A stretch of DNA of 41,937 nt from a virus (IMGVR_UViG_3300036797_000056:1-41937); one strand, 5' to 3'; shown: positions 23,145 to 37,905, numbered from the stretch's first letter. A program made the numbers and translations. Notes: generated by a model not told the origin, from the letters alone.

Positions 23145-23600
23145 ATGACAACACCTGTAACCGTTACAAAACACAGCCACCTTGCGGAGACGGTGTTCTT
23201 CGACATTCTCAAGGTATTTGCTCATATTGTGCTGCCTCTGTGCGGCGCTCTATATTTCGCATTTGCTGGTGCACTCGACCTCCCGTCACCGGAGTATGTC
23301 GTCGGGGGCATCGCATCTGCGACAGCAGCCTTGGGCACATTCATCAAGGCGAACGAGGTAAACTACAACACGTCTGATGCGAAGTTCGACGGCGTTGTGA
23401 ACGTGATCCAGACTGATGCCAAGAAGATCTATCAGTTGGCTTTGAAGACAGATCCAAACCTCATCGATCAGACGGAGCAACTACTCCTCAAGGTGGTGAA
23501 GCCTAGTGCGCCTGCGCCACCGGCAGTGACGTGGGAAGCACCGGTTGCAGCATCGCCTCCTGAGATCCAGGCGCCTGTGACTCAGACGCCGTCGCAGTAA
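23145..23600 (+). CDS. Holin (Dp-1-like) with soluble C-terminal extension
   Basis: FDILKVFAHIVLPLCGALYFAFA...LP, two TM segments. Confidence 0.7.
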   Translation: MTTPVTVTKHSHLAETVFFDILKVFAHIVLPLCGALYFAFAGALDLPSPEYVVGGIASATAALGTFIKANEVNYNTSDAKFDGVVNVIQTDAKKIYQLALKTDPNLIDQTEQLLLKVVKPSAPAPPAVTWEAPVAASPPEIQAPVTQTPSQ

Positions 23601-23620
23601 AAACACCGCCTATAGTGAGA
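23592..23620 (+). promoter_or_regulatory. Repeated 29-bp promoter-like motif, copy 1
   Basis: TCGC-AGTAA-AAA-CA-CCGCC-TATAGT-GAGA; overlaps the holin stop codon. Confidence 0.8.
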
Positions 23621-23638
23621 CCCACTACAGGAGGCAAA

Positions 23639-23923
23639 ATGCTTAGTAGGAATAAACAACCCACCCCGCTTGAGACCGTCACGACTCGTACAATCGAATC
23701 GCTGAATGATTATGACCCGAGCACCGAGGAGTTTGGCAAGATTTTGGAAAGAGTTGAAAAGTTGCACGAAATGCGTCAGGACGAGAAGTCCTCCGCACAA
23801 GTGTCGCCAGATACAAAAGCCACAATCGCCGCCAACCTTCTCGGAATCGGAATGATCATCGGCTTCGAGAGAGCAAATGTGATCACGTCGAAAGCGCTGG
23901 GATTTATCCTGCGTGCACGGTAA
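23639..23923 (+). CDS. Small protein with C-terminal hydrophobic segment (cassette gene)
   Basis: AGGAGG RBS, ATG 23639; VSPDT..TIAANLLGIGMIIGFERANVITSKA. Confidence 0.75.
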   Translation: MLSRNKQPTPLETVTTRTIESLNDYDPSTEEFGKILERVEKLHEMRQDEKSSAQVSPDTKATIAANLLGIGMIIGFERANVITSKALGFILRAR

Positions 23924-23940
23924 CCAACCGTAACGTTGAA

Positions 23941-23981
23941 AAGGGGAGCGTCATGTAGAAGATACATGGCGTTCTCTTTTT
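23941..23981 (+). terminator. Intrinsic terminator
   Basis: AAGGGGAGCGTCATGTA-gaaga-TACATGGCGTTCTCTTTTT. Confidence 0.8.
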
Positions 23982-24002
23982 ACATTGATTAAAATTTTTC
24001 AC

Positions 24003-24031
24003 TCGCGAAAAAAACAGGGCTAATAATGAGA
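24003..24031 (+). promoter_or_regulatory. Repeated 29-bp motif, copy 2
   Basis: TCGC-GAAAA-AAA-CA-GGGCT-AATAAT-GAGA. Confidence 0.85.
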
Positions 24032-24057
24032 CCTATACCCTAATTTAAGGAGTTATC

Positions 24058-24285
24058 ATGGAGCCCACCGTCGAAGAGACCGAGACCCCGAGCCGCCTTA
24101 CCCGCACTCGTGACTTCGTCGTTCGCAACCGGTATCGCATCGTTCTCGTCACAACCGCTGTGGCGACGTACGGCGCGATCCGAATGCTGGACAACGAGAT
24201 CAACAAGCGCGTGGAGGAGAGCGAGACCGTCGATCTCGAGCCCACCCCGGAAGAGCCCACGAAGACCACCAAGAAGCAGTCGTAA
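24058..24285 (+). CDS. Small protein with one hydrophobic segment (cassette gene)
   Basis: AAGGAG RBS; C/G-ending codons; IVLVTTAVATYGAI. Confidence 0.75.
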   Translation: MEPTVEETETPSRLTRTRDFVVRNRYRIVLVTTAVATYGAIRMLDNEINKRVEESETVDLEPTPEEPTKTTKKQS

Positions 24286-24291
24286 TGTTTC

Positions 24292-24325
24292 AAAACTAGA
24301 TCACTAACAAGTGGTTTAGTTTTTT
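24292..24325 (+). terminator. Intrinsic terminator with TAACA apex
   Basis: AAAACTAGATCACT-aaca-AGTGGTTTAGTTTTTT. Confidence 0.8.
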
Positions 24326-24328
24326 GTC

Positions 24329-24357
24329 TCGCGAAAATTACACAGCTAATAATGAGA
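24329..24357 (+). promoter_or_regulatory. Repeated 29-bp motif, copy 3
   Basis: TCGC-GAAAA-TTA-CA-CAGCT-AATAAT-GAGA. Confidence 0.85.
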
Positions 24358-24445
24358 AGAAGTAGCTTGATGCGAATGTAGTTCCTTCAATGGAACAGCT
24401 TCTACAACAGTTCGTCACTCGTTGTAGACTTCTCATCATTTTTTT
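24352..24445 (+). ncRNA. Candidate small structured RNA A (about 94 nt)
   Basis: Closing stem ATGAGAAG/CTTCTCAT; inner hairpins GTTCC/GGAAC and TCTACAAC/GTTGTAGA; T7 tail; no RBS-led ORF inside. Confidence 0.6.
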
Positions 24446-24466
24446 GTCCCAAACTAAGGAGTCGAA

Positions 24467-24661
24467 GTGAATGTCAAAGGACGCCGCCATCTCGAAGTTC
24501 GTCTTGCGCGTGATGCTCATGCAGGGCCTCAAGTTCCTTCTGTTGAGGTTACTGATGAAATCATTGACAAAGTCTTTGATCGAGGGCTCGAAGCGTTCAT
24601 CATCGTCAAAGGTCTAAGCCTCGCAGCGAAGATCGCAGAGAGCTGGCTGATTCGCAGATAA
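24467..24661 (+). CDS. Small hypothetical protein
   Basis: AAGGAG RBS before GTG; its stop codon lies inside motif copy 4. Confidence 0.65.
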   Translation: MNVKGRRHLEVRLARDAHAGPQVPSVEVTDEIIDKVFDRGLEAFIIVKGLSLAAKIAESWLIRR

Positions 24662-24680
24662 AACACGTCCTATAATGAAA
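24652..24680 (+). promoter_or_regulatory. Repeated 29-bp motif, copy 4
   Basis: TCGC-AGATA-AAA-CA-CGTCC-TATAAT-GAAA. Confidence 0.85.
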
Positions 24681-24729
24681 GGGAGCAATAGCTTAGGAAT
24701 TGATCACACGTTCCACCTTTCATTTTTTT
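24675..24729 (+). ncRNA. Candidate small structured RNA B (about 55 nt)
   Basis: Closing stem ATGAAAGG/CCTTTCAT; inner AGC/GCT and GGAA/TTCC hairpins; T run. Confidence 0.55.
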
Positions 24730-24757
24730 GTCCCACCCAAAATCCAAGGAGTACAAA

Positions 24758-24868
24758 ATGAAGCGCAAGAAGTATGGCTTCGGCAACTTCGTTGTCGACT
24801 GTGTCCTCACATGCTGCACCGGAGGGTTGTGGTTGATCTGGATCTTCGTTCGGGAGTCGAGAGGGTAA
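24758..24868 (+). CDS. 36 aa membrane peptide (not in ORF track)
   Basis: AAGGAG RBS; MKRKKYGFGNFVVDCVLTCCTGGLWLIWIFVRESRG; TAATG coupling to the next gene. Confidence 0.75.
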   Translation: MKRKKYGFGNFVVDCVLTCCTGGLWLIWIFVRESRG

Positions 24869-25023
24869 TGCAGATTCGCAGCAAACAGCAGGTATACACC
24901 ATCACGCTCCGCTTCCCCAAGGAAGTGACTCGTGATGTAAAGGTGCGTGCGTCGTCCCGCGAGATCGCGGAGCACCGTGCGTTAAAACGAAACCCCAATG
25001 CGTTGGGGATCAAAACAAGGTAA
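24868..25023 (+). CDS. 51 aa basic hypothetical protein
   Basis: MQIRSKQQVYTITLRF...; real start taken from the TAATG overlap. Confidence 0.6.
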   Translation: MQIRSKQQVYTITLRFPKEVTRDVKVRASSREIAEHRALKRNPNALGIKTR

Positions 25024-25028
25024 AGATA

Positions 25029-25121
25029 ATGGATCCAATGATTGTGGTCTGGCTGTGCCTGTTCATCAATGTTGTTGCAATTGTAATCGTTGCAGCAGAT
25101 AACAAGAGGTGGGACGCATGA
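25029..25121 (+). CDS. 30 aa hydrophobic peptide (not in ORF track)
   Basis: MDPMIVVWLCLFINVVAIVIVAADNKRWDA; ATGA overlap with the next gene. Confidence 0.5.
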   Translation: MDPMIVVWLCLFINVVAIVIVAADNKRWDA

Positions 25122-25873
25122 ATTTGCATCATATTCTCAAGCGTGGTGAGACGTTCCTCACGCAGAACGCGTCGACAATCCTCACAGGTGTCGGTGTTGC
25201 AGGAACCGTTGCGACTGCAGTACTGTCTGGCAAAGCTGCAGTCAAGGCTGAGCACATCATGATTCATTATGATGTAGATCCGGATGCGGTACCCACCACA
25301 AAACAAACGCTACAAGCAACATGGCAGTGTTATATTCCGCCAGTTGCAGTTGGCACACTCACTGTCACGGCAATCATCTTGGGTCATCGTCTGGATGCCA
25401 AGAAGGCGGCTGCATTGGCCGCAGCATATTCTCTCTCAGAGAAGCGGTTCCAGGACTACAAGGACAAGGCCCTGGATCGGCTGGGAGTGAACAAGGAGCA
25501 AGCGGTGCGAGACGAGCTTGCTCAGGACCAGGTATCCGACACACCCATGTCTCGAGAAGTGATTATCGGAAACGGCAACGTGCTGTGCTTCGATGCGTAC
25601 AGCGGGCGATATTTCGAGTCGAGTGTCGAGACGATTCGCCAGGCTGTGAACACGACTAACTCGTATATTCTCGACCATCAGTATGCGAGTCTGAGTCACT
25701 TCTACGACGAGATCGGGCTCCCGCCAAACGGGATATCTGACGAGATTGGGTGGAAGTCGGACGACCTGATCGACGTCACGTTCTCCACCGTGCTTGCACC
25801 AGACAAGCGCCCGTGCCTGTGCATGGACTTCGCCTGTCGACCGATCCCTGAGTACACGATGGTGTACGGGTGA
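25118..25873 (+). CDS. DUF6353-like conserved phage protein, paralog 1
   Basis: NASTILTGVGVAGTVATAVL, YIPPVAVG, AAALAAAYSL, SGRYFES, FYDEIGL. Confidence 0.7.
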   Translation: MNLHHILKRGETFLTQNASTILTGVGVAGTVATAVLSGKAAVKAEHIMIHYDVDPDAVPTTKQTLQATWQCYIPPVAVGTLTVTAIILGHRLDAKKAAALAAAYSLSEKRFQDYKDKALDRLGVNKEQAVRDELAQDQVSDTPMSREVIIGNGNVLCFDAYSGRYFESSVETIRQAVNTTNSYILDHQYASLSHFYDEIGLPPNGISDEIGWKSDDLIDVTFSTVLAPDKRPCLCMDFACRPIPEYTMVYG

Positions 25874-26121
25874 CAGTAATACGTTTGCCCCATCGCCAGA
25901 GCCAGTGGTGGTGGGGCAGTCAGTTCATCAAGGTCGACGTATGTCGATTCAATGGGAATACCTGGGATGTGATCCTGGAATATCCCATCAATGGCTACGA
26001 AGTGAAGCTGGATGATTTCTGGCGTAATGTCACGCCGTATCCAAGCAACCTGTCAATCGAGGACCAATCGCACGAGATCAGTCCAGAACAGTACCAAAGG
26101 AAATCGAATGCTGAAGCGTAG
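25870..26121 (+). CDS. Hypothetical protein
   Basis: GTGA overlap; fills the gap between two conserved genes. Confidence 0.5.
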   Translation: MTVIRLPHRQSQWWWGSQFIKVDVCRFNGNTWDVILEYPINGYEVKLDDFWRNVTPYPSNLSIEDQSHEISPEQYQRKSNAEA

Positions 26122-26599
26122 TGTGACGTACACAAATTACGACAACGAAGAGGTCACCGAGGAACTCTGCTTCCACCTCTCCAAGGCAGAGCTGATTCAG
26201 ATGGAGGTCGAGATCCCTGAGGGAATCGAGGCACATCTGAAGAAGGTGGCAGAGTCAAGCGATGGTAAGCTGATCATCGCCACCATGAAGGATCTGATCC
26301 TTCGGTCTTACGGGATCCGTGACGGCAACCGGTTCCGCAAGAACGCAGCCATCCGCGAGGAATTCGAGGCTTCTGAGGCGTTCAGCGAGCTGTTTATGGA
26401 GCTGGCCACGAAGGCCGACGTGGCTGCCGAGTTCGTCGTGGGGATCATGCCCGCGAACCTGGATGCGGACATCGCTAAGATCACGCAGACAGAAGAGACC
26501 CCAACGATGCCTCGGTCCATGTCTCGTGTAGAAGCTGAATCGCTTTCTCACGAGGAACTAGTCAGGCGGCTTCAACTGGGGTTCATAGTCACAGACTAG
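26108..26599 (+). CDS. Conserved phage hypothetical protein
   Basis: AAAGGA RBS, ATG 26108; MLKRSVTYTNY..E.TEE..FHLSKAEL, SEAFSELFMEL. Confidence 0.75.
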   Translation: MLKRSVTYTNYDNEEVTEELCFHLSKAELIQMEVEIPEGIEAHLKKVAESSDGKLIIATMKDLILRSYGIRDGNRFRKNAAIREEFEASEAFSELFMELATKADVAAEFVVGIMPANLDADIAKITQTEETPTMPRSMSRVEAESLSHEELVRRLQLGFIVTD

Positions 26600-26628
26600 T
26601 CGCGAGAAAAACAGGGCTAATAATGAGA
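26600..26628 (+). promoter_or_regulatory. Repeated 29-bp motif, copy 5
   Basis: TCGC-GAGAA-AAA-CA-GGGCT-AATAAT-GAGA; one mismatch to copy 2; begins on the base after the upstream TAG. Confidence 0.85.
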
Positions 26629-26648
26629 CCCCACTAAAGGAGATTGTT

Positions 26649-26894
26649 ATGCCCAAACTGCACTACATCAAGCTCGCCGCACAATTCGTTGTTGGCGCCA
26701 GCGTTTCCAAAGTGATCAACGATGTCATCACCAATAACACCGCACCAGACACGACCCTCGACCAGATCGAGATCGCCGTCGGTTCGACTGCACTTGGTTG
26801 GATGGTGTCGGATATCGCTAAGGAATGGACTGACGCCAAGATTGATTGGGCCGCAGAGACGATCGAGCAGATCAAGACAAGCAGCACCAATTAG
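26649..26894 (+). CDS. Small hypothetical protein (cassette gene)
   Basis: AAGGAG RBS; lies between motif copy 5 and a terminator. Confidence 0.75.
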   Translation: MPKLHYIKLAAQFVVGASVSKVINDVITNNTAPDTTLDQIEIAVGSTALGWMVSDIAKEWTDAKIDWAAETIEQIKTSSTN

Positions 26895-26902
26895 TAAGTC
26901 AA

Positions 26903-26936
26903 AAGACTAAAGACCCTAACACGGCCTTTAGTTTTT
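26903..26936 (+). terminator. Intrinsic terminator with TAACA loop
   Basis: AAGACTAAAG-a-CC-ctaacac-GG-c-CTTTAGTTTTT. Confidence 0.7.
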
Positions 26937-26950
26937 GCAACGGAGAAACT

Positions 26951-27571
26951 ATGGAGCAATTTCCGCCTAACAGTGTGAAGTCAAAGCAGCCGGAACCGGA
27001 AGAGAAGAAGATCGAGCGTGTCACCAAGAGTGACCCAACTCGTCGCAAGAAGGGTCTGGCCAAGCAGTTCCAGAACACATTCTTCGGCGGTGATCTCAAG
27101 TCGGCTTCGCAGTACGTTCTATTTGGCGTGCTGATTCCGGCAGCAAAAGATGCTCTCGTCGAGGCTGGTTCTGCGGGCTTTGAGAAGCTCATATTCGGCG
27201 AAAGCAAGCGTCGTGGTAGTAGAGGTATGGGCTCAGCGTTGGGGCATGTTGCCTACAACCGTATGAGCCAACAGCCAGTGAAGGCGATGCAGTATCAAGA
27301 CCTTTCACGGCGTGCCCGAGTGATGCACGATTTCGATGAGATCGTGTTGGACTCTCGGCAGGAGGCTGAGGATGTTCTGGATCGGCTTTACGATCTGCTC
27401 AGCCGCTATGAAGAAGTGACAGTGTCAGATCTGTACGAGCTGACCGGTATCAAATCTACTCACGTGGACAAGCAGTGGGGATGGACAAACCTCAAGGGAT
27501 CCAGCGTAAGCCGGGTCAGAGGTGGATATTTGCTTGACCTCCCCGAACCGACCCATCTCGTAGCTCTCTAG
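26951..27571 (+). CDS. Conserved phage hypothetical protein
   Basis: GGAG RBS, ATG 26951; FPPNS..SK, VLIPAAKD, VSDLYELTG...D..WGW. Confidence 0.75.
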   Translation: MEQFPPNSVKSKQPEPEEKKIERVTKSDPTRRKKGLAKQFQNTFFGGDLKSASQYVLFGVLIPAAKDALVEAGSAGFEKLIFGESKRRGSRGMGSALGHVAYNRMSQQPVKAMQYQDLSRRARVMHDFDEIVLDSRQEAEDVLDRLYDLLSRYEEVTVSDLYELTGIKSTHVDKQWGWTNLKGSSVSRVRGGYLLDLPEPTHLVAL

Positions 27572-27574
27572 ATC

Positions 27575-27928
27575 ATGGACGACGATCTGAAAGCACGAGC
27601 ATATGTTGAGGCGATGTATCCTGGCTCTCGTTGGAGCCGTCGGGTTCGCCGTATGACTAGTGAGCAGGTCGTCGCCATATTTCTAAAAGAACAAAAAAAG
27701 AAGGAAGATCATGAGTCTAATCCCAAAGAGCTTGGGGCTTGCAATGAGCCGCCAACTGCTCTCAGTACAGAAGAGTTCACCCAACCTGCTCTTTGGGGCG
27801 GGGGTTGTCGGGATGGTGGGGTCGACAGTTCTCGCGTGCCGAGCGACCCTGAAGGTGGAGGAAGTTCTGGAGGAGTCGCAGGAGCGGATGGAGCTGGCGA
27901 CGAAGACCGAGCATCCAGATTATTCTGA
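27575..27928 (+). CDS. Small hypothetical protein; true end uncertain (see frameshift finding)
   Basis: First ~45 aa look protein-like (YPGSRW..RV..M..EQV.AI); the rest overlaps the next gene by 218 nt. Confidence 0.5.
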   Translation: MDDDLKARAYVEAMYPGSRWSRRVRRMTSEQVVAIFLKEQKKKEDHESNPKELGACNEPPTALSTEEFTQPALWGGGCRDGGVDSSRVPSDPEGGGSSGGVAGADGAGDEDRASRLF

Positions 27929-28622
27929 GGCTGACCGGGTTCGCGACATCCGCATCATCAAGGTGCAGACTGTCATACATTTGGGACGGCTTTATCTGCC
28001 TGCAGTTGCAGTTGGAGCCCTGTCGGTGGCAGCGCTGACCAAGTCGCACAATATTCTCAACGAGAGGAATGCTGCTCTCACAGCTGCATATGCAGCAATT
28101 GAGAAAAGCTTCAGTGAGTATCGCAACCGCGTTGTCGAGAAGTATGGCTATGACGCGGATCAGCACATGCGGTACGGCAGCGAGAAAGGTGAGATCGTTG
28201 ACCCAGATACTGGTCGTACGCGGAAGGTTGATCACGTTGCCGACGAGGAGCCGTCGCAGTACGCGCGGTTCTTCGATGCCACGTGTCAAAACTGGAGCAA
28301 AGAAGCTGAGTACAACAGGATCTTCCTCAAGTGCCAGCAGAACTACGCGAATGATCTGCTTCACGCTCGTGGCCATGTCTTCCTCAATGAGGTATACGAC
28401 ATGCTCGGACTCGAGCGTTCAAAAGCAGGCTCTGTTGTCGGATGGGTCCTAAGCAACAAAGGGGACAACTTCGTGGACTTCGGTGTGTTCACCGGTCAGG
28501 ATGCTGTCCGAGATTTCGTCAACGGCAAGGAAGCGTCCATTCTCCTCGACTTCAACGTCGATGGTCTCATCTACGACAAGATCGAAAGTGTAGGTGAGCG
28601 GCTGTCATGGCAGAAAGGGTGA
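27711..28622 (+). CDS. DUF6353-like conserved phage protein, paralog 2
   Basis: SPNLLFGAGVVGMVGSTVLACRAT, LYLPAVAVG, RNAALTAAY, FLNEVYDMLG. Confidence 0.75.
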   Translation: MSLIPKSLGLAMSRQLLSVQKSSPNLLFGAGVVGMVGSTVLACRATLKVEEVLEESQERMELATKTEHPDYSEADRVRDIRIIKVQTVIHLGRLYLPAVAVGALSVAALTKSHNILNERNAALTAAYAAIEKSFSEYRNRVVEKYGYDADQHMRYGSEKGEIVDPDTGRTRKVDHVADEEPSQYARFFDATCQNWSKEAEYNRIFLKCQQNYANDLLHARGHVFLNEVYDMLGLERSKAGSVVGWVLSNKGDNFVDFGVFTGQDAVRDFVNGKEASILLDFNVDGLIYDKIESVGERLSWQKG

Positions 28623-29338: not shown

Positions 29339-29837
29339 AGACGCCAATAAGTCATATCTTGAGTGGCTGATTCAGCAGACAGAATACCCAGACGAATTTC
29401 ATCACTTACTGGAACTGATCCACAAGTATGAGTTCGTCTGGGTCGTGGCAAACGATGACAATCGTATTGCCGATGCGCAGGACCTAAGGCAGGAGTGGTC
29501 AGCAGAAACGAACATAACTGTTCTAGATCTGTGGCCGTATATTTCTGTGCTTGAAGTTCTGATCGCGTTGTCCCGTCGCTGTGAGTTCCAGACGGGACAA
29601 TCATCTCAAGAGTGGATGACCATATTTCTCAACAACCTAGGCTTCGGCCGGTTCAGGGGATTTCTGGGCATCAAACGACAGAACCGAGTTGAGGAGATAA
29701 TCGACGATTTCATCTGGCGTCGTTACACACACCATGGTGAAGGTGGGTTATTTCCTCTGCAATACCCGAAGCAAGATCAAACCCAAGTCGAGTTGTGGTA
29801 TCAGATGCATGCCTACTTGATTGAGAACAGTAGATAG
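29328..29837 (+). CDS. Conserved phage hypothetical protein
   Basis: ATG 29328; YLEWL, NDDNRIAD..DLR, SVLEVLIAL, GGLFPL, ELWYQM. Confidence 0.75.
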   Translation: MTNEDANKSYLEWLIQQTEYPDEFHHLLELIHKYEFVWVVANDDNRIADAQDLRQEWSAETNITVLDLWPYISVLEVLIALSRRCEFQTGQSSQEWMTIFLNNLGFGRFRGFLGIKRQNRVEEIIDDFIWRRYTHHGEGGLFPLQYPKQDQTQVELWYQMHAYLIENSR

Positions 29838-29846
29838 GAGGTGACA

Positions 29847-32800
29847 ATGGATTTCTATCAGATCCGTAGTAAAGAGACGAAGGAAGGCATGGAGTTATAT
29901 CCTGACTTCATCGTTGGTAGGTCTAAGGATCTGATGATCCAAGGTCGTTCTTTCTACGCTGTTTGGGATGAGGCCAATCATATTTGGTCTCGTGATGAGT
30001 ACGACGTGCAGCGTCTTGTGGATGAGGATCTGAATCGCGAAGCAGATCAGCTGTTCCGTGAGACTGGTGTGTCGTACACAGTCAAGTCCATGCGTTCGTT
30101 CAACAGTACGACTTGGGTGCAGTTCAAAAAGTACATGGCAGCCATTGGTGACAACAGCCACCAGTTGGATACCAAACTCATATTTGCAAACACCGAAATT
30201 AAGAAGACGGACTATGCCAGCAAAAGACTACCGTACGCTCTTGGCCCTGGTTCTATCGAGGCTTGGTCTGAGTTGGTCGGAACTCTCTACTCAGTCGAAG
30301 AACGCAATAAGATTGAGTGGGCCATCGGCGCTATTGTTTCGGGTGAGGCTAAGAAGATACAGAAATTTGTGGTTTTTTATGGTTCGGCTGGGACAGGAAA
30401 GTCCACGATTCTTAATATTGTGGCCTCACTCTTTGAAGGATACACCGCAACATTTGACGGAAAAGCACTTGGATCGTCGAATGCTGCGTTCGCGACTGAG
30501 GTATTCAAGAACAATCCACTTGTTGCCATCCAACACGACGGCGATCTTTCACGAATTGAGGATAACACCCGACTGAACAGCATCATCTCCCACGAGGAGA
30601 TAGTGATGAACGAGAAGTACAAGGCATCATATCCTTCTCGTATCAACGCGATGTTGTTCATCGGTTCCAACCAGCCAGTAAAGATCTCTGACGCCAAGTC
30701 AGGAATGTTGCGGCGGTTGATTGATATTCATCCGACAGGTATCAAGATTCCGCCAAAGCATTACGAACAGTTGATGCAACAGATCAGCTTTGAGCTAGGC
30801 GCTATAGCTCATCACTGTCTGGAAGTGTTTCAGTCGATGGGCAAGAACCACTACAACGCCTATCGACCAACTGAGATGATGTTGCAGACGGATGTGTTCT
30901 TCAACTTTGTTGAGGCCAACTACGACATCTTCAAGTCTCAAGAGGCTATGCCTTTGACACAGGCATATTCTCTGTATAAGGAGTTCTGTGCTGACACTGG
31001 TATCGAGCGCCCGTTACCTCAATACAAAATGCGTGAAGAGCTACGCAACTATTTCAAGGAGTTCAAAGATCGTGGTGAGGTTGATGGTAAAACTATGCGC
31101 AGTGTGTATTACGGCTTCACTGCTGAGAAGTTCAAAACTCAGACTGAAGATCCAGGCGTATTCACGCTATCATTGGGAGAGACGACATCTCTACTGGATC
31201 AACTGTTGTCTGACTGTCCAGCACAGCAGGCTAAAGCTGATGGTACTCCGAGCAAAGCTTGGAAGAATGTAACTACCAAGCTCTCAGACATCAAGACATC
31301 AGAATTACACTATGTTCAGGTGCCTGAGAACCATATTGTCATTGACTTTGATCTGAAAGCAATCAATGGACACTCAGGACTCGAGCGAAATCTCGAAGCA
31401 GCTAGCAGCTGGCCGCCAACGTATGCAGAGGTGTCTCAATCCGGAGACGGACTTCACCTCCATTACGAGTATCTTGGAGACGCATCCAGACTACACAACC
31501 TCTTTGCCGAGGGCATTGAAGTCAAGGTCTATTCTGGATCAGCGGCTCTCAGACGGAAGCTCACTGCTTGTAATGCTGTACCGATTGCTGAGATAAGTAG
31601 CGGGCTTCCGCTCAAGGAGGAGAAGAAAGTTCTAACCGAAAAAGCTATCACCTCTGAGAGAGGGTTGCGGCGCATGATCGAACGCAATCTGAAAAAGGAA
31701 ATCCACGCAGGTACCAAACCGAGCGTCGACTTCATCCATAAGGTACTCGAAGAAGCATACGAGTCCGGGATGGAGTACGACGTGTCGGACATGCGAACGA
31801 AGATTCTCGCGTTCGCCAACAACAGCAGTAATCAGGCTGGGACCGCACTGAAGACTGTTCAATCAATGAAGTTCAGTTCGGAGAGAGAGCATGTTTCGGT
31901 TGATCGAGAAGGCGACGAGAGACTTGTGTTCTTTGATGTGGAGGTTTACAAAAATCTCTTCGTTGTCTGCTGGAAGTACCAAGGAAGTGACGAAGTCGTC
32001 CGAATGGTCAATCCATCAGCCGCCGACGTTACTGATCTCTTTCGACTTAGACTTGTGGGGTTTTATTGCAGAAGATATGACAACCATATTCTGTATGCAG
32101 CAAGTCTTGGCTGGGGAGTGGAGCGTCTGTATGAACTGAGCCAGAAGATGATCGTGGATAGTAATCGTAATGCCACGTTCGCTGCGGCTTACAACATATC
32201 TTACGCTGACATCTGGGACTTCAGCACCAAACGCCAGGGTCTGAAGAAGTTCGAGATTGATCTTGGTCTACCCCACATGGAACTGGATCTACCGTGGGAC
32301 CAGCCGGTGGATCCGAAGGATTGGGACCGTGTGGTTGAGTACTGCGTCAATGACGTAAAGGCCACTGAGGCGGTATTCGAAGATCGCAAGGGAGATTTTA
32401 CCGCGAGGCAAATTTTGGCCGAACTTTCCGGTTTGTCCATTAATGACACAACGCAGCGTCACACAGCGAAAATCCTGTTTGGCGATGAGAAAAATCCCCA
32501 GCGGGAATTTGTGTATACGGATCTAAGTAAGGAGTTTCCTGGTTATGAGTTCTCGTACGGAAAATCAACGTACCGCGGCGAAGATCCAGGAGAAGGCGGA
32601 TACGTGTATGCAGAACCAGGAATGTATACAAATGTTGGTGTGCTCGACGTTGCGTCGATGCATCCGGCAACGATCGAAGTTCTCAACCTCTTTGGTCCAT
32701 ACACCCAAAAATACGCAGAGCTGAAAGCTGCTCGTATCGCGATCAAGCGACAGGAGTACGCTAAAGCTCGAGAGATGTTCGATGGGCGACTTGCTCCATT

Positions 32801-33596
32801 TCTTGAAGGAGCTGAAGATCACAAGGTTGACGAGCATGGTAGTGAGTTGGCGTTCGCTTTGCGGATTGCTCTCAACATTGTGTACGGCCTTACCAGCGCA
32901 AAATTTGATAACCCGTTTCGGGATATTCGCAATGTCGACAACATCGTGGCCAAGCGTGGCGCGTTGTTCATGATTGACTTGAAGCACCAGCTCCAGAAGG
33001 GTGGGGCCCAGGTTGTACACATCAAAACCGATTCGGTAAAGATTCCAGATGTCGATGATACTCTGATCGAGTTTGTCAAGACATACGGTGAGAAGTACGG
33101 GTACGAGTTTGAGCATGAGGCAACTTATGACAAGTTCGTTCTCGTGAACGATGCAGTATATGTGGCTCGGAAGGGAGATCAGTACACATGTATTGGTGCG
33201 CAATTCGCTCATCCGTACGTGTACAAGGAACTGTTCTCACACGAGCTTATTCAATTCAGCGACTATTGTGAGGCCAAAAGTGTCAACCAAGGTGTCATAT
33301 ATCTCGACATCGAAGGACGAGACGGGACATCCGAAGAGCGTGACCATCGAAAAATGCGTCATGTGGGTAAGACCGGTTCGTTTGTTCCGGTTCTTGAGGG
33401 TGGAGGGGTTCTATATCGGGTTAAGGACGACAAGTACTACGCAGTGGCCGGTACCAAGGGTCATCTGTGGATGGAATCCCATCTCGCGTCTCAAGTGAAG
33501 GACCTGAAGATTGACATGGCATATTTCGAGAAGCTCAAAGATGATGCCATTAAGACCATCGAGAAATTCGGAAGCTTTGAGGAGTTTGTTGCATGA
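29847..33596 (+). CDS. Fused helicase (SF3/D5-like), AEP primase, 3'-5' exonuclease and family B DNA polymerase
   Basis: GSAGTGKS; VIDFD and SQSGDGLHLHY; FFDVE, YDNHIL, YCVND; DVASMHP, RIALNIVYG, KTDS; AGGAGG RBS before ATG 29847. Confidence 0.88.
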   Translation: MDFYQIRSKETKEGMELYPDFIVGRSKDLMIQGRSFYAVWDEANHIWSRDEYDVQRLVDEDLNREADQLFRETGVSYTVKSMRSFNSTTWVQFKKYMAAIGDNSHQLDTKLIFANTEIKKTDYASKRLPYALGPGSIEAWSELVGTLYSVEERNKIEWAIGAIVSGEAKKIQKFVVFYGSAGTGKSTILNIVASLFEGYTATFDGKALGSSNAAFATEVFKNNPLVAIQHDGDLSRIEDNTRLNSIISHEEIVMNEKYKASYPSRINAMLFIGSNQPVKISDAKSGMLRRLIDIHPTGIKIPPKHYEQLMQQISFELGAIAHHCLEVFQSMGKNHYNAYRPTEMMLQTDVFFNFVEANYDIFKSQEAMPLTQAYSLYKEFCADTGIERPLPQYKMREELRNYFKEFKDRGEVDGKTMRSVYYGFTAEKFKTQTEDPGVFTLSLGETTSLLDQLLSDCPAQQAKADGTPSKAWKNVTTKLSDIKTSELHYVQVPENHIVIDFDLKAINGHSGLERNLEAASSWPPTYAEVSQSGDGLHLHYEYLGDASRLHNLFAEGIEVKVYSGSAALRRKLTACNAVPIAEISSGLPLKEEKKVLTEKAITSERGLRRMIERNLKKEIHAGTKPSVDFIHKVLEEAYESGMEYDVSDMRTKILAFANNSSNQAGTALKTVQSMKFSSEREHVSVDREGDERLVFFDVEVYKNLFVVCWKYQGSDEVVRMVNPSAADVTDLFRLRLVGFYCRRYDNHILYAASLGWGVERLYELSQKMIVDSNRNATFAAAYNISYADIWDFSTKRQGLKKFEIDLGLPHMELDLPWDQPVDPKDWDRVVEYCVNDVKATEAVFEDRKGDFTARQILAELSGLSINDTTQRHTAKILFGDEKNPQREFVYTDLSKEFPGYEFSYGKSTYRGEDPGEGGYVYAEPGMYTNVGVLDVASMHPATIEVLNLFGPYTQKYAELKAARIAIKRQEYAKAREMFDGRLAPFLEGAEDHKVDEHGSELAFALRIALNIVYGLTSAKFDNPFRDIRNVDNIVAKRGALFMIDLKHQLQKGGAQVVHIKTDSVKIPDVDDTLIEFVKTYGEKYGYEFEHEATYDKFVLVNDAVYVARKGDQYTCIGAQFAHPYVYKELFSHELIQFSDYCEAKSVNQGVIYLDIEGRDGTSEERDHRKMRHVGKTGSFVPVLEGGGVLYRVKDDKYYAVAGTKGHLWMESHLASQVKDLKIDMAYFEKLKDDAIKTIEKFGSFEEFVA

Positions 33597-33922
33597 GCGA
33601 TGAAAAAGCTGATTTCAGCAACGAGGGTTCGGGCATGACGATGATGTCGGAGAAGCGTCCTCGTGGGAGTGACCACATGATGGACCAGGCGAAGCGGGTG
33701 ATCGTGCAGTACTTCAATCGCAATGCTGTGTCTCGTACAGACACCAAGTTGTTCGTTGAGGATCTGTACATCGTCTGGTTCTGCAAGACGCTGCAGAACT
33801 GGAAGGCGCTGGTCAGCACCGACCGCGTCGATGGGCATTACTTCGAGGTGACGTATGACGGTGACAGCAAGTGCTGCTACCTCGACGTCTACGTCAAGGC
33901 GGAGAATCTCAGAGTCAACTAA
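33593..33922 (+). CDS. DUF6275-like protein
   Basis: YIVWFCKTLQNWKALVST...YFEVTYDGD...YLDVY. Confidence 0.7.
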   Translation: MSDEKADFSNEGSGMTMMSEKRPRGSDHMMDQAKRVIVQYFNRNAVSRTDTKLFVEDLYIVWFCKTLQNWKALVSTDRVDGHYFEVTYDGDSKCCYLDVYVKAENLRVN

Positions 33923-34089
33923 TGGGGATCGAAGGTATTGACCAGCTGATCCGGGGCTTTGAAGAGGATCGGCATATTTTCATCGATTTCCCAGTAGGTA
34001 GCAATCTGCACGGTCGATCGTGCGTAAGGTGTGGGAGAGTACGAAACGATCCCATTCATATTCAAGATGAGGAGCAGAAAGATGGCTGA
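33922..34089 (+). CDS. Small putative Zn-binding protein
   Basis: TAATG coupling; H-x-F...CVRCG...PIH. Confidence 0.55.
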   Translation: MGIEGIDQLIRGFEEDRHIFIDFPVGSNLHGRSCVRCGRVRNDPIHIQDEEQKDG

Positions 34090-34546
34090 AGATAACACGG
34101 TGTTGATGGAGGGCGTGAAGATCGTCTTCCGCAACTTCGCAGGTAAGGAGCAGCAGTACAACCGAGAGGGCGATCGTAACTTCTCGGTGCTGCTCAACGA
34201 CGATGTGGCTGAGGCCATGCTGGCCGACGGCTGGAACGTCAAGTACCTCAAGCCTCGTGAGGATGACGAGGATGAAACGGCGCAGGCATATTTGCAGGTG
34301 TCGGTCGGATACAAGGGTCGTCCACCCAAGGTCGCGGTGATCACCTCGAGGGGTCGCACGAACCTGGGTGAAGATGAGGTCGAGATGTTGGACTGGGCTG
34401 ACATCCAGAACGCGGATCTCATCGTCAGGCCCTACGAGTGGTCGGTCAACGGCAAGACCGGCATCAAGGCATATCTCAAGTCGCTGTTCGTCACGATCGA
34501 CGAGGACGAGCTGGAGAAGAAGTATGCAGATCTGGACGAGCAGTGA
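34082..34546 (+). CDS. Single-stranded DNA binding protein (putative)
   Basis: FRNFAG...YNREGDRNF, GIKAYLKSLFV, acidic C-terminal tail; replication module; GAGGAG RBS. Confidence 0.7.
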   Translation: MAEDNTVLMEGVKIVFRNFAGKEQQYNREGDRNFSVLLNDDVAEAMLADGWNVKYLKPREDDEDETAQAYLQVSVGYKGRPPKVAVITSRGRTNLGEDEVEMLDWADIQNADLIVRPYEWSVNGKTGIKAYLKSLFVTIDEDELEKKYADLDEQ

Positions 34547-34758
34547 TCGATTCTACTCAGGTCATAGACCTCGGTAACTCGATGTTCTGTGATATCGAGG
34601 AGAAGGTGATCAACTGGAAAGGTGACAACTTCTACAAAGCTTGTGGACAGCACGTTGGAAGTCTGCCTGGGGGCGGTACTTCTAGCTGTGTTCTACCCAT
34701 TGGTCATAAGTATGGAGACCATATTGATTATGACGGACGAAGCACGGTCGTTAGATGA
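34543..34758 (+). CDS. Small Cys/His protein
   Basis: GTGA overlap; CG...CVLPIGHKYGDH. Confidence 0.55.
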   Translation: MIDSTQVIDLGNSMFCDIEEKVINWKGDNFYKACGQHVGSLPGGGTSSCVLPIGHKYGDHIDYDGRSTVVR

Positions 34759-34880
34759 CGATTAGTGGTCTTGTCATATGCATCATCCTCGTTGGCTTCG
34801 GGTACGTGCTCGGACGGGTGGCCGGTCCGTTCGGGCAGTTCGACGTTGACGAGGATGACGAAGAGCAGTATCGCAACTAA
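34755..34880 (+). CDS. 41 aa membrane peptide (not in ORF track)
   Basis: MTISGLVICIILVGFGYVLGRVAGPFGQFDVDEDDEEQYRN; ATGA overlap. Confidence 0.6.
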   Translation: MTISGLVICIILVGFGYVLGRVAGPFGQFDVDEDDEEQYRN

Positions 34881-34912
34881 GTAAACCACCACGTTCAAGT
34901 TAGGAATTACGA

Positions 34913-35236
34913 ATGGAAATCCAGAAGTTTCAGAAGAAGCCGCTGATCGTCGAGGCGGTCAAGGTGTCAGCGTCCAACTTCAACGAGGTGGCCGGTTGGT
35001 GTCAGGGCACTGTCGAGCAGGAGGATGGGAGTGAGTTCATCAAGGTGCATGTGCTCAACCCCATGAATGAACGCCAGACTAGAGCCTTTGTAGGCGACTG
35101 GATTCTCTACGCAGGTAGGGGATTCAAGGTCTACAAGGACAAGGCGTTCACGTCCTCGTTCGACCCGCTACAGGGCGTAGCCCTGGATAAGGCGAACCAA
35201 GCTGCGAAGCCGCAGCCGGAAGTGCCTGTCAGTTAA
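34913..35236 (+). CDS. Conserved phage hypothetical protein
   Basis: KKP..VEAV.V...N..EVA.WC.G, AFVGDWIL. Confidence 0.7.
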   Translation: MEIQKFQKKPLIVEAVKVSASNFNEVAGWCQGTVEQEDGSEFIKVHVLNPMNERQTRAFVGDWILYAGRGFKVYKDKAFTSSFDPLQGVALDKANQAAKPQPEVPVS

Positions 35237-35258
35237 CACACCAATCAAAGGAGTACAA

Positions 35259-35402
35259 ATGCCCAACAGCCTCGTCGACTTGCAGAAGTTCTTCTCGACA
35301 CCGGAGAAGCCCGTCCGGATGATTGAGATGAAGGAGTTCTGGGATTCCCTCACCGACGAGGAGAAGCTCGAGTTCAAGGCTGCTGAGCTGCCGAAGGACT
35401 AG
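35259..35402 (+). CDS. 47 aa hypothetical protein (not in ORF track)
   Basis: AAGGAG RBS; MPNSLVDLQKFFSTPEKPVRMIEMKEFWDSLTDEEKLEFKAAELPKD; biased codons. Confidence 0.75.
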   Translation: MPNSLVDLQKFFSTPEKPVRMIEMKEFWDSLTDEEKLEFKAAELPKD

Positions 35403-35735
35403 TAATTGAATTGAGAGGCCTTTGCGCCTTCTTCACTTCTTAGCTTCTCCGTAACCACTCGGAGAGCAAATTACAACAAACTTACCCCTGGGAAACCTGG
35501 GTGAGAGGTGGGACGCGCATACCTTCATACACGCGATGTGAGCCATGCGATCACTAGTACGCATCAGAGGACCGCCCAGAGCGGCTAGCACACATATTTG
35601 ACGCAGTACAACTGACACCCTGTTTTGTAATTACCAACACACAACAGGCATATATCGACCTAAAGGGTCGAATCGAAAATTGCGTGGGCTGCCCTGACTT
35701 CGGTTGGGGCGGCTCACACTTGTCCTATATTTTTC
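35403..35735 (+). ncRNA. Candidate large structured non-coding RNA (about 330 nt)
   Basis: Longest gap in a tightly packed genome; at least six helices, a GAAA and a C(UUCG)G tetraloop, many G-U pairs. Confidence 0.55.
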
Positions 35736-35745
35736 GGAGGTATGG

Positions 35746-36069
35746 ATGCACCGAGAAGAAGCACTGCGTAAAGCTGACAATGTCCGTATAGCAAGGGGGT
35801 TGATCAAGAAGCGGATATTTAAAGGTGAAGTATCGGTGGTGGATGTGGTTATGAACCCACCGGAAGACTTGAGGGATATGGCGTTGTTCGAAGTACTACT
35901 CGCTCAAAAGCGGTGGGGCCGTATGCGAGTGGTGAAATTCTTGGAGAAGAATGACTTGTCGGAATATCTGGGGTTGCAATCAATGACAGAACGACAGAGA
36001 AAGATTGTTGCACATGCCATCACCACCCTTACGTGGCCACCAGAAAGAAGCTCTTACAAAGCTGGGTAA
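35746..36069 (+). CDS. Actinobacterial integration host factor-like (mIHF/sIHF, H2TH) protein
   Basis: AL.KA..VR.AR..IK..I..G....DV, M....L....WG......L, MTERQRK aligns by eye with mIHF (ALEKA..AR..RAELK..LK.G...GKVKA...LGDRQRK); GGAGG RBS before ATG 35746. Confidence 0.7.
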   Translation: MHREEALRKADNVRIARGLIKKRIFKGEVSVVDVVMNPPEDLRDMALFEVLLAQKRWGRMRVVKFLEKNDLSEYLGLQSMTERQRKIVAHAITTLTWPPERSSYKAG

Positions 36070-37195
36070 CGGAAAGATTCTTTGGGGTGGCGTGGGGACT
36101 GGGAAGTCTCGCGTGGCTATGGCGTATTACGTAAAACACGAATCACCAAAGGATATCTATGTCATCACTACAGCTAAAAAGCGTGACTCAAAAGATTGGG
36201 AGGGCGAAGCCGCAGCATTTGTCGTTGGTCGGGATAACGACTCTAGCCTTCACGGACGTCTCACGGTTGACTCGTGGAACAACCTTGGTAAGTACGTTGA
36301 CGTTGTTTCTGCTTTCTTCATATTTGACGAGCAGCGTCTGGTCGGTAGTGGGTCGTGGGTCAAAGCTTTCCTCAAGATTGCTCGCTCTAACCGTTGGATA
36401 CTTCTCAGTGCTACTCCTGGTGACTCTTGGCTGGACTATATCCCAGTATTTGTAGCTAACGGTCATTACAAGAACAAATCAGCATTCCGACGCGAACATG
36501 TGGTCTACAAGCCGTACATGAAGTACCCGGTTGTGGACCACTACGTCGGTGTGGCAAAGATGGCAAAACTTCGTCAGGACATATTGGTCGAGATGCCAAT
36601 GGAAAGGCATACGGTGAGACACACTGAATTGGTGCGTGTTGGCTACGACAAAGAGCTGATGAAGCAAGTAGTCGATAAACGCTGGGAGGTCTTTGAAGGT
36701 CGTCCGCTACGTGATGTGGCGGATATGTACCGATGTGGGCGGAAAGTGGCTTACAGTGCCTCTCAGAGGCTCTCAGAGGTACATAAGCTGATAGGGAAGC
36801 ATCGCAGATTGATCGTTTTCTATAATTTCGACTATGAACTCGAGATTTTGAGGACCTTGAAAGACAGTGTGAAAGTGGCTGAATGGAACGGCCACAAGCA
36901 TGAGCAATTGCCAGATAGTGAGTACTGGGTTTATCTGGTTCAGTACGCTGCAGGTGCGGAGGGGTGGAACTGTACGAATACTAATGCTGTGTGCTTCTAC
37001 AGCTTGACATATTCGTACAAGCTGTGGGAGCAGGCTCATGGAAGGATAGACAGGTTAGATACGGATTACGTAGATCTGTACTACTACGTGATACGCTGTG
37101 ATCACCGTATTGACACCGCTGTGTGGGTGGCTTTAAAGCGTAAGAAGTCGTTTCAAGAGCCCAAAAACCAGCTATTTGCGGATTCGACCTCTTAA
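36014..37195 (+). CDS. Superfamily 2 DNA helicase
   Basis: LRGHQ, GGVGTGKS, FIFDEQ, LLSATP, AGAEGWN, EQAHGRIDR; start uncertain (36005 or 36014). Confidence 0.85.
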   Translation: MPSPPLRGHQKEALTKLGNGKILWGGVGTGKSRVAMAYYVKHESPKDIYVITTAKKRDSKDWEGEAAAFVVGRDNDSSLHGRLTVDSWNNLGKYVDVVSAFFIFDEQRLVGSGSWVKAFLKIARSNRWILLSATPGDSWLDYIPVFVANGHYKNKSAFRREHVVYKPYMKYPVVDHYVGVAKMAKLRQDILVEMPMERHTVRHTELVRVGYDKELMKQVVDKRWEVFEGRPLRDVADMYRCGRKVAYSASQRLSEVHKLIGKHRRLIVFYNFDYELEILRTLKDSVKVAEWNGHKHEQLPDSEYWVYLVQYAAGAEGWNCTNTNAVCFYSLTYSYKLWEQAHGRIDRLDTDYVDLYYYVIRCDHRIDTAVWVALKRKKSFQEPKNQLFADSTS

Positions 37196-37350
37196 TTTGC
37201 CAACGAAAATCGTAAAAAACTTTTTTATAAACCGTCACATGATGTCTAAATACCCTATATTACCTTACGCACCCGCGGGAAGTAATACATTAGACATCAT
37301 ATATGACATTATAAAAACTTTTTTGCCATAAATGCTTGGCAAATTGGCAA
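37196..37350. other. AT-rich long inverted repeat, candidate replication origin
   Basis: ATGATGTCTAA/TTAGACATCAT, TTTTTATAA/TTATAAAAA, TATTAC/GTAATA; two AAAAACTTTTTT; four TTGCCA/TGGCAA. Confidence 0.6.
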
Positions 37351-37367
37351 TCCCCACAAGGAGAGTA

Positions 37368-37868
37368 ATGCTCGAATGGAGACCGATTGAGGGGTTCAAC
37401 GGTTACAGCGTAAGCTCAGACGGCGATATTCGTAACGACTTCAATGGATATTTGCTGCATCGTTACATCCTTCAGCACCGTGATTTCCCAGTTGTCGGGT
37501 TGATGCGACAAGGTAAGCAGTACAAACGATCTGTTGCAAGACTAGTGGCCAACGCATATTTAGAGCCACACCCAAGTCCAGCCTTTGATACACCGACATG
37601 TATGGATGGTGATCGCACAAACTGTAAGGTCAACAATCTGGTTTGGCGTCCACGATGGTTCTCAGTCAAGTACAACCATCAGTTCGCTTATCAATCCAAA
37701 CATCATATTGATCGCTACATCCGCGAGAAGAAGTCTGGGATGACATTCATTGATTCATTCGAAGCTGCCAAATGGTATGGCGTGCTTGAAGATGATCTTG
37801 TTTTGTCAATCCTGAATCGGACATACGTCTGGCCTGCATATTTGTTCTTCGAGGTAGTTGAACCTTAG
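37368..37868 (+). CDS. NUMOD4-HNH-like protein with degenerate active site
   Basis: EWRPIEGFNGYSVSSDGDIRN (NUMOD4), VARLVA.AYL, CMDGDRTNCKVNNL.W; AAGGAG RBS before ATG 37368. Confidence 0.75.
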   Translation: MLEWRPIEGFNGYSVSSDGDIRNDFNGYLLHRYILQHRDFPVVGLMRQGKQYKRSVARLVANAYLEPHPSPAFDTPTCMDGDRTNCKVNNLVWRPRWFSVKYNHQFAYQSKHHIDRYIREKKSGMTFIDSFEAAKWYGVLEDDLVLSILNRTYVWPAYLFFEVVEP

Positions 37869-37876
37869 ACATCGGC

Positions 37877-37905
37877 CCGCGTATAAATCGCAGAATATAA
37901 TAGAA
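37877..37905 (+). promoter_or_regulatory. Repeated 29-bp motif, copy 6 (degenerate)
   Basis: CCGC-GTATA-AAT-CG-CAGAA-TATAAT-AGAA; same spacing as copies 1-5; intergenic. Confidence 0.65.

Follow-up and report, generated by a model that had tools for sequence, protein, structure and literature searches.

A 29-bp phage motif as the probable promoter of a predicted two-barrel RNA polymerase, probably delivered with the virion

A 29-bp motif that recurs in one orientation ahead of non-structural genes is probably, on comparative sequence evidence, the promoter of an RNA polymerase that the phage encodes and delivers with its virion. The window, a viral sequence of 41,937 nucleotides (IMGVR_UViG_3300036797_000056), belongs to the 1706/BI/AM/AU/DJ/CC lineage of phages. 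Its own predicted two-barrel polymerase would start RNA at motif column 23–24, inside a TATAAT-like element. The CGC and C of the motif, one helical turn apart, would be read on one face by N-terminal helix-turn-helix (HTH) modules, and melting would take place in the A/T stretch at −4 to −1. To judge from the positions of the sites, transcription by the delivered enzyme would cover its own operon, the replication block and the units of small genes once the DNA has entered. Motif and enzyme are each already in print, and the link between them is absent from the literature searched, beyond which earlier papers (Garneau 2008, Summer 2011) may report on the motif or on virion proteins.

The motif in the window and in related phages

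The pattern YCGCR-N4-WWW-CR-N5-WATA-RT-RRRA has six exact matches in the window, all on the plus strand and at gene boundaries:

23592..23620, plus strand: copy 1, overlapping the holin stop codon; inferred +1 at 23615; heads the gene 23639-23923 (phrog_5818)
24003..24031, plus strand: copy 2; inferred +1 at 24026; heads a small gene, 24058-24285
24329..24357, plus strand: copy 3; inferred +1 at 24352
24652..24680, plus strand: copy 4; inferred +1 at 24675; heads the DUF6353 gene block
26600..26628, plus strand: copy 5; inferred +1 at 26623; heads a block reaching primase-polymerase, SSB and helicase
37877..37905, plus strand: copy 6, of a variant class ending ATAGAAGG; inferred +1 at 37900

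The sequence-only reading had described these six gapless copies, their strand and their place at gene boundaries, and on all three points it was right. Shuffled sequences gave a mean of 0.99 matches to the pattern, none of 100 shuffles reaching six, and no seventh copy occurs in the window even if three mismatches are allowed. Because the pattern was derived from the same six copies, a leave-one-out ranking over 83,813 positions was added, in which copies 1 to 5 each rank first and copy 6 ranks third. Copy 6 is a weaker variant, scoring 10.3 bits compared with 34–38 for the others, and the next best site in the window scores −1.3. It heads the operon of VRR-Nuc, Cas4-like exonuclease and polymerase genes, a position that is kept in relatives. 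Copies 2 and 5 indeed differ at a single nucleotide of 31, in column 7. A search for related loci by means of the DUF6353 gene gave no relatives.

The search of related genomes that the same reading had called for also bears the motif out. Scanning with a matrix started from the six copies brings up 445 sites across 41 genomes, 39 of which had been picked for having one exact motif match; all of the sites are on the coding strand and none is in reverse. Their spacing is rigid, with 360 matches as against at most 10 for any variant spaced one nucleotide wider or narrower. Across hosts, and from 38 to 61% GC, the motif is kept position by position with free columns between: columns 6–8 and 15–19 vary (0.14–0.55 bits) while the spaced columns are fixed. 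Start codons concentrate at motif columns 49–52. Phages chosen for their polymerase carry the motif as well, namely Bilo, together with 1706, FP_oengus and Poco6, which have 7, 8 and 14 sites above 10 bits, respectively, and none in reverse. In 596 Gb of prokaryote genomes the exact pattern occurs in 37 stretches, mostly short or phage-sized contigs, compared with an estimated 680 or so in IMG/VR. Copies that keep one orientation and a rigid spacing, lie ahead of genes and seldom occur in host genomes are what one expects of promoters for a phage-encoded RNA polymerase.

The sites are also distributed unevenly along the genomes. At a 16-bit cut-off, none of the 445 sites in the 41 genomes falls in the structural arm, between HNH and tape measure, where the best score is 14.3 forward versus 12.0 reverse (34 genomes). 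In 28 of the 41 genomes the polymerase operon is preceded by a site above 10 bits, versus none of 41 on the reverse strand. Promoters ahead of early rather than structural genes, with timing judged from gene type, are expected of a virion polymerase. Since the sites accompany non-structural genes and the polymerase operon and never the structural arm, the enzyme that reads them would have to be present early.

The site of transcription initiation

Transcription likely starts at column 23–24 (23615 in copy 1, and the equivalent positions above), because there is no −35 element, the −11 A is often missing, RNA stems reach back to column 25 but not to column 22, and ribosome-binding sites begin early. 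Numbered from column 24 as +1, the motif has near-invariant bases in four places: a CGC that occupies −22 to −20, a C (−11), a T (−2) and the RTR of +1 to +3. In the consensus of T7 promoters, TATA directly precedes a purine start. The motif resembles T7-class promoters in this respect and in being compact, rigid and laid across +1, and differs from them in its longer upstream reach (−22) and in the unrelated fold of its enzyme. As this enzyme is predicted to be two-barrel and not T7-like, the likeness would be convergence.

An unlikely alternative is that the sites are host sigma-A/HrdB promoters, with TATAAT serving as −10 element and the upstream CGC and CA as binding sites for a phage activator or repressor, which might be the HTH protein. 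Of the 445 sites, 213 have an exact TATAAT and 63 have TATAGT, as this alternative would predict. However, the sigma-70/sigma-A −10 element is a TAnnnT hexamer whose A at −11 is near-invariant, and the motif sites depart from it: column 21, the would-be −11, has A at 352 of the 445 sites and another base at 93, the FP_oengus sites above 6 bits lack this A in 12 of 13 cases, and the neighboring T of column 22, normally a variable position, is conserved in 95%. Columns −3 to 0 carry at most 0.12 bits in a set of 213 sites, which confirms the earlier description of a TATAAT-like element lacking a −35. A sigma-70 scan yields 19 sites where 20.1 are expected, and the rigid spacing (360 matches versus at most 10) is unlike a −35 hexamer placed 16–18 bp upstream through a spacer that tolerates one nucleotide more or less. 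The sigma-A reading fits the sites badly.

Structures predicted in the transcripts provide a second line of evidence:

23939..23981, plus strand: terminator-like hairpin with U-run (−25.1 kcal/mol), ending unit 1 just before copy 2
24292..24325, plus strand: terminator-like hairpin (loop TAACA) with U-run, ending unit 2 just before copy 3
24352..24445, plus strand: predicted structured RNA or leader whose 5′ and 3′ ends pair (24352-24359 with 24429-24436), followed by a U-run; −26.7 kcal/mol, z −3.3
24675..24730, plus strand: predicted structured RNA or leader whose 5′ and 3′ ends pair (24675-24682 with 24716-24723), followed by a U-run; −14.6 kcal/mol, z −2.4

It had been claimed that stems begin exactly at the purine after WATA in three copies. 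This is true to within 1 nt for copies 3 and 4, and weakly for copy 6, whose stem needs three G-U pairs, is absent from the minimum-energy fold and reaches z −1.4 (z-scores here come from mononucleotide shuffles). In copy 3 there is a mismatch at column 23 and pairing resumes at columns 22–20; in copy 4, column 23 is able to pair with the U-run. The palindrome of copy 1 (23609-23631) extends upstream of the inferred +1, and this, like the renewed pairing in copy 3, speaks against a start there. The leaders of copies 3 and 4 share only their ends, with no consensus fold between them, and Rfam has no match anywhere in the window, including 24352..24445. A further point against is that stems closing on the motif are rare among 555 sites (17, of which 9 break before column 25). 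In these 17, seeded only on columns 30–39, A lies opposite T25 in 9 of 16 and C lies opposite G26 in 11 of 16, compared with 3 of 33 for A opposite T22 and T20 (Fisher p=7e-4).

The sole Shine-Dalgarno sequence begins at columns 26–29 in 23 of 440 sites, from 8 genomes, compared with a mean of 0.95 in a shuffle control that speaks only to non-chance occurrence. A sigma-A start, expected 6–8 nt beyond the −10 at column 31–33, would cut these sequences, which counts indirectly against it; stems and ribosome-binding sites alike need RNA upstream of column 31. Several of the 23 sites come after a strong terminator-like hairpin. The comparative data on closing stems and ribosome-binding sites therefore favor the earlier suggestion that +1 lies within the motif.

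Two further points speak for the host enzyme. Early-type units here have their own terminators, an arrangement typical of host-transcribed genes; a terminator detector, which is loose, is positive at 269 of 443 sites versus 91 of 410 random positions. In addition, FP_oengus carries an integrase, and its prophage must restart without the virion enzyme, hence some host-driven start is required; promoters read by sigma-A would supply it.

The polymerase, its link to the motif and its delivery

The operon headed by copy 6 and a gene of the structural arm contain the following features:

2531..2965, plus strand: structural-arm gene with a DUF7211 leader (LAHHGIKGMHWG), a tag of the same kind as that of the polymerase
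37944-38234, plus strand: VRR-Nuc endonuclease gene, between copy 6 and the polymerase gene
38206-38772, plus strand: Cas4-like exonuclease gene, between copy 6 and the polymerase gene
38759..41443, plus strand: predicted single-chain two-barrel RNA polymerase of 894 aa (PHROG 4291)
38795..38848, plus strand: leader LxHYG...SGRYPWGSG, polymerase residues 13-30, related to the DUF7211 leader; candidate capsid-loading tag
38867..39103, plus strand: HTH1 and HTH2, residues ~37-115, with E108 and R112 invariant; candidate readers of CGC and C13
40304..40318, plus strand: DFDGD catalytic loop, residues 516-520, invariant in 102 aligned sequences

The 894-aa protein belongs to phrog_4291 (1254 bits; 250 phage records), a family in which all 7,999 scored candidates passed E 1e-20. 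It is predicted to comprise a disordered leader, HTH1, HTH2, a winged HTH, a catalytic core at residues ~229-729 and a C-terminal HTH, and its D516 F517 D518 G519 D520 is the DxDGD loop of two-barrel polymerases of the YonO/QDE-1 kind. Although a sequence search of the PDB gave nothing significant, the predicted model (pLDDT 79.5) has a QDE-1/RDR-like core. Its best structural matches are RDR2 and QDE-1 (Z 16–17.5, rmsd 4.2–6.8, 367–432 residues), QDE-1 being found by Foldseek at E 2e-9 and superposed at Z 17.3, rmsd 4.5, over 379 residues; Thermus phage gp64/gp62 reach Z 13.3. The gene product is hence predicted to fold as a two-barrel polymerase. Matches to the N-terminal model are confined to HTH and winged-HTH folds of a generic kind (best Z 6.2), with no paired-HTH family singled out. 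No published assay of DNA-dependent RNA synthesis by this family was found in the literature searched.

The polymerase is encoded in 46 of 48 motif-bearing viral records and in all 27 near-complete ones, as expected of a cognate gene. This co-occurrence does not single out the polymerase, since all the core genes go together as a set; 17 of 36 further records have a terminase that is 70–84% identical. The proposal that the HTHs of the polymerase read the motif divides into two parts: the comparative data favor the polymerase as reader, whereas for the HTHs a low-power comparison in 42 genomes found no covariation of motif columns with HTH residues beyond kinship among the matches listed. E108 and R112 are as invariant as the CGC of the motif.

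Virion RNA polymerases are known from N4, crAss (gp66) and P23-45 (gp96), and the enzyme described here is probably packaged as well. A profile built from 68 structural-arm leaders only gives at least 2 bits to 32 of 38 polymerase N-termini and to few others among 4,086 ORFs. In 1706, orf75, a full-length ortholog of the polymerase (39% identity), bears the GenBank label 'structural protein'; against this evidence, the small right-arm orf62 and orf71 of that record, both without the tag, are likewise labelled structural. The accessible portions of Klyczek 2017, Cornuault 2018 and the termite virome, Microbacterium and Rhodococcus surveys mention neither the motif nor virion proteomics.

The same promoter and enzyme might operate without packaging, the polymerase being made first from a host-read start or by read-through and then serving middle genes, like P23-45 gp64. 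Temperate members exist, the closest phage folds are those of gp64/gp62, of the non-virion P23-45 type, with virion gp96 ranking lower, and the evidence from virions comes down to a single label in a single record. However, the motif also heads the polymerase's own operon, and the structural label of orf75 and a leader common to structural-arm proteins also point away from this arrangement, which we regard as improbable. Less probable still is dual use, whereby the phage enzyme is the main reader and host polymerase primes weakly at TATAAT-bearing copies. About half of the sites keep TATAAT and a prophage has to restart, but the temperate example, FP_oengus, is without TATAAT in 12 of 13 sites, and melting alone accounts for TATA at −4 to −1.

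Published systems and implications

An intergenic motif has been reported in cluster DJ Gordonia phages (Vardy, PMC9671010; Conley, PMC10868162; Mossy, PMC11008172) and a 32-bp repeat in cluster AU (Giantsbane, 10.1101/2020.01.10.891226). Both are the same element as the 29-bp motif: within the published intervals our matrix finds 8 sites in Vardy (29–40 kb) and 10 in Giantsbane (26.5–32 kb), none in reverse. As far as the available text of these papers goes, each treats one cluster and reads the element as a sigma-70 −10 (in the announcements of Vardy and Conley), a motif for translation start or a boundary of recombination, with no link to a polymerase and no start site proposed inside it. 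That the copies are boundary sequences shuffling small-gene cassettes, as excerpts of the Giantsbane preprint and the Mossy announcement suggest, is hardly credible: rearrangements do gather at repeats (10.1101/2020.01.10.891226, PMC11008172) and copies 2 and 5 are nearly identical, but the motif is conserved by position around free columns across hosts and GC contents, stands singly before conserved core operons and has start codons gathered at columns 49–52. Nor are the copies alike along their full length and flanking mobile genes, as such boundaries should be, columns 6–8 and 15–19 being variable; recombination at the repeats is better read as a side effect.

The putative RNA polymerase of the 1706/FP_oengus/actinophage supercluster, PHROG 4291, has likewise been described (Koert et al., 10.1101/842583; Ruprich-Robert and Thuriaux, PMC2919709), with DxDGD and terminal HTHs as in the 894-aa member; the sections available give no promoter, activity or virion role. 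Thermus siphovirus P23-45 offers the nearest parallel in the portion of that report at hand, an AT-rich motif at pre-early genes being assigned to its virion polymerase, and gp96 (virion) and gp64 (non-virion) sharing with our case the two-barrel fold and an own motif at early genes (PMC10770324). Unlike P23-45, the present phage has one enzyme, which is unfused to the tape measure and contains four HTH-type modules of its own; the 29-bp element is bipartite and extends across +1. YonO, from the Bacillus phage SPbeta, is a DNA-dependent polymerase with two barrels in a single chain and comes from a phage of a Gram-positive host, as is predicted here. In the text available, YonO transcribes late genes from one start with its promoter sequence left undetermined (PMC5467207), whereas the sites described here avoid the structural arm. 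The wider question is how single-chain two-barrel enzymes locate their promoters.

More tentatively, and at somewhat less than even chances, we envisage a very large lineage of Actinobacteria and Firmicutes phages that injects a ~100-kDa two-barrel RNA polymerase with sigma-like HTH modules, loaded into the head by a short His-Gly leader and reading a near-universal 29-bp promoter that starts inside TATAAT. The ATAGAAGG-class variant that heads the polymerase operon may also drive late genes across joined cos ends. The family is large (250 cultured phage records) and usually annotated just as 'HTH protein'. With a defined promoter and +1 predicted to the base, the question is testable in the cultured phages Vardy, Bilo and 1706. 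If correct, this reading would amend the sigma-70 and recombination interpretations in print, and the enzyme would be a minimal relative of cellular polymerases that recognizes promoters without factors, and would offer Gram-positive hosts an orthogonal expression system ready for use. It may also help to explain how the lineage has moved between host phyla.

The motif in the window and its lineage

The six + strand copies of the 29-bp motif that the sequence-only reading had listed (at 23592, 24003, 24329, 24652, 26600 and 37877, here copies 1 to 6) are all present as described and exceed chance expectation. Copy 6 is a weaker match, but lies at a conserved position. A palindrome (23609-23631; outer arms 8/9 pairs) overlaps the start region of copy 1. 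The 41,937-base window is probably the whole linear genome, because its ends match the cos-flanking pattern of its relatives, and its lineage corresponds to BI/AM/AU/AW/DJ/CC/EL plus 1706/FP_oengus of Koert et al. (10.1101/842583). Its gene order is as follows.

Up to the holin, + strand: endolysin, HNH, terminase, portal, protease-capsid fusion, tail genes, holin
After the holin, + strand: small-gene block, primase-polymerase, SSB, helicase, HNH
Right end, + strand: VRR-Nuc, Cas4-like exonuclease, 894-aa predicted polymerase gene (38759..41443), one last small gene

The endolysin (74-517) is of lysozyme type, and a second gene at 1546-2067, with no PHROG match, resembles an NlpC/P60-type peptidase by eye. 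The protease-capsid fusion (8556-10598) contains repeated hydrophobic-x-His words (residues 11-13, 145-147, 166-168, 222-224, 267-269 and 294-296), also present in orf10 of Lactococcus phage 1706, which are candidate prohead-protease sites. The gene at 26012-26599, for a tail assembly chaperone (Pfam Phage_TAC_17), lies inside the motif-driven block, whereas in low-GC relatives it belongs to the structural arm. Most related genomes end in a G-run, a TCGCA-like word, a C-run and the overhang, then CC-A-run-CCCCGGGG; the TCGCA word is the first half-site of the motif, and the window ends (41900-41937 and 1-25) carry a divergent version of this architecture.

One exact pattern occurs at 161 viral loci in 12 of the 64 parts of IMG/VR (an estimated ~680 for the whole), and in only 37 stretches of 596 Gb of prokaryote genomes. 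Searching with 50 loci on the longest contigs yielded 48 records, 46 of which encode the polymerase; the other two are 69% and 78% complete. A matrix started from the window's six copies recovered 445 sites, every one on the coding strand, in 41 genomes (39 motif-selected records, six lacking the very end, plus the window and Streptomyces phage Bilo). Conservation is strong in the first half (T1 91%, C2 98%, G3 99%, C4 96%, R5, C13 99%, A14 89%) and in the second (T20 93%, A21 78%, T22 95%, A23 83%, R24 98%, T25 96%, G26 93%, A27 87%), with rigid spacing (360 matches versus at most 10 for spacing variants). Sites occur throughout the small-gene block and ahead of the replication block and polymerase operon, and the matrix scan of the 41 genomes gave zero sites above 16 bits in the structural arm. 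Upstream of the polymerase operon, 28/41 genomes have a site above 10 bits (reverse strand, 0/41), the prevailing variant ending ATAGAAGG. Because 39 genomes had been picked by motif, phages selected by polymerase were also checked, and all four (Bilo, 1706, FP_oengus and Poco6) contain it. The repeats published for Vardy (PMC9671010) and Giantsbane (10.1101/2020.01.10.891226) are the same element.

Some copies directly precede tRNA or tRNA-like genes (ReqiPoco6 42668; FP_oengus 2909), and many more head predicted structured non-coding RNAs of 50-150 nt; the two such RNAs of the window have no Rfam match. Upstream of a Bilo site, ~27030-27045 is the reverse complement of the conserved post-motif leader word, possibly an antisense or end-pairing element.

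Position of the RNA start

The proposal that transcription starts inside the TATAAT of the motif, rather than downstream of it as for sigma-A, is favored by two independent sequence arguments. The first concerns motif-headed units predicted to be structured RNAs with a 5′-3′ closing stem. Stems claimed for three copies were recovered at copies 3 and 4, and weakly at copy 6. Stems seeded only on columns (motif positions) 31-38 numbered 11, versus 0.7 in shuffles, at a strict threshold. Combining the stem sets gave 17 stems among 555 non-redundant sites, in which informative pairing extends to column 25 (T25:A 9/16, G26:C 11/16) and has ended by column 22 (T22:A 1/16, T20:A 2/17; p=7e-4); nine of the 17 break before column 25. 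Since A at columns 23 and 21 can pair trivially with the U-run, resolution is limited to column 23-24, the likely +1; column 24 is a conserved purine.

The second argument is that at 23/440 sites (8 genomes) the sole Shine-Dalgarno of the first gene starts at columns 26-29 and would be cut by a sigma-A start at columns 31-33. Read-through could rescue some of these units, but a loose detector finds a hairpin plus U-run upstream of 15/23, several strong and <=15 nt away. Moreover, the -11 A is absent from 93/445 sites and, separately, from 12/13 FP_oengus sites, and column information reveals no -35 element at motif sites, in agreement with the sequence-only reading.

Hairpins that resemble terminators and have the word CCTAACA in the loop (window 24292-24325 and ~26900-26935) recur upstream of sites in 16-17 genomes, with 14-15-fold enrichment ahead of motif copies; they may constitute a signature of termination by the phage enzyme.

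The polymerase as probable reader

The 894-aa protein matches 250 phage records (Arthrobacter 95, Gordonia 55, Streptomyces 54, Lactococcus 13, others), Bilo being the top match (59.9%). In its predicted model (pLDDT 79.5), residues ~229-729 resemble QDE-1, RDR2 and Thermus phage gp62/gp64, and DFDGD is invariant in the alignment. The predicted N-terminal order is HTH, HTH, winged HTH, and another HTH, the fourth, is C-terminal. E108 and R112 of HTH2 do not vary across 102 close or 43 diverse sequences, and may read the CGC of the motif. Among the results listed (42 genomes, low power), no motif-HTH covariation was found beyond kinship, and other core genes co-occur with the motif as often as the polymerase does. 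We are quite confident that this predicted two-barrel polymerase is a reader of the motif.

Reading of sites upstream of both non-structural genes and the polymerase's own gene would require the enzyme to arrive early. Its 1706 ortholog is labeled 'structural protein' by the depositors, as is 1706 orf7, which has a related leader. The structural-arm leader profile (DUF7211) picks out the polymerase N-terminus in 32/38 genes, and two genomes carry a polymerase-type leader on a structural-arm protein. Against virion delivery, the 1706 label also covers two right-arm proteins without the leader tag, and FP_oengus, being temperate, would need to restart without virion enzyme. Late genes might, as a guess, be transcribed from copy-6-class sites by reading through cos.

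In earlier papers the motif figures as a sigma-70 -10, translation-start motif or recombination boundary (PMC9671010, PMC10868162, PMC11008172, 10.1101/2020.01.10.891226) and the enzyme as a predicted polymerase (10.1101/842583, PMC2919709); our literature search found no paper connecting the two. The motif is a real and known element whose published reading is probably wrong. The present analysis adds the quantified +1 argument, the exclusion of the motif from structural genes and, for 1706, the virion label. The reading we favor, with reasonable though lesser confidence, is that the phage's own two-barrel polymerase, which is probably virion-borne, uses the motif as its promoter.
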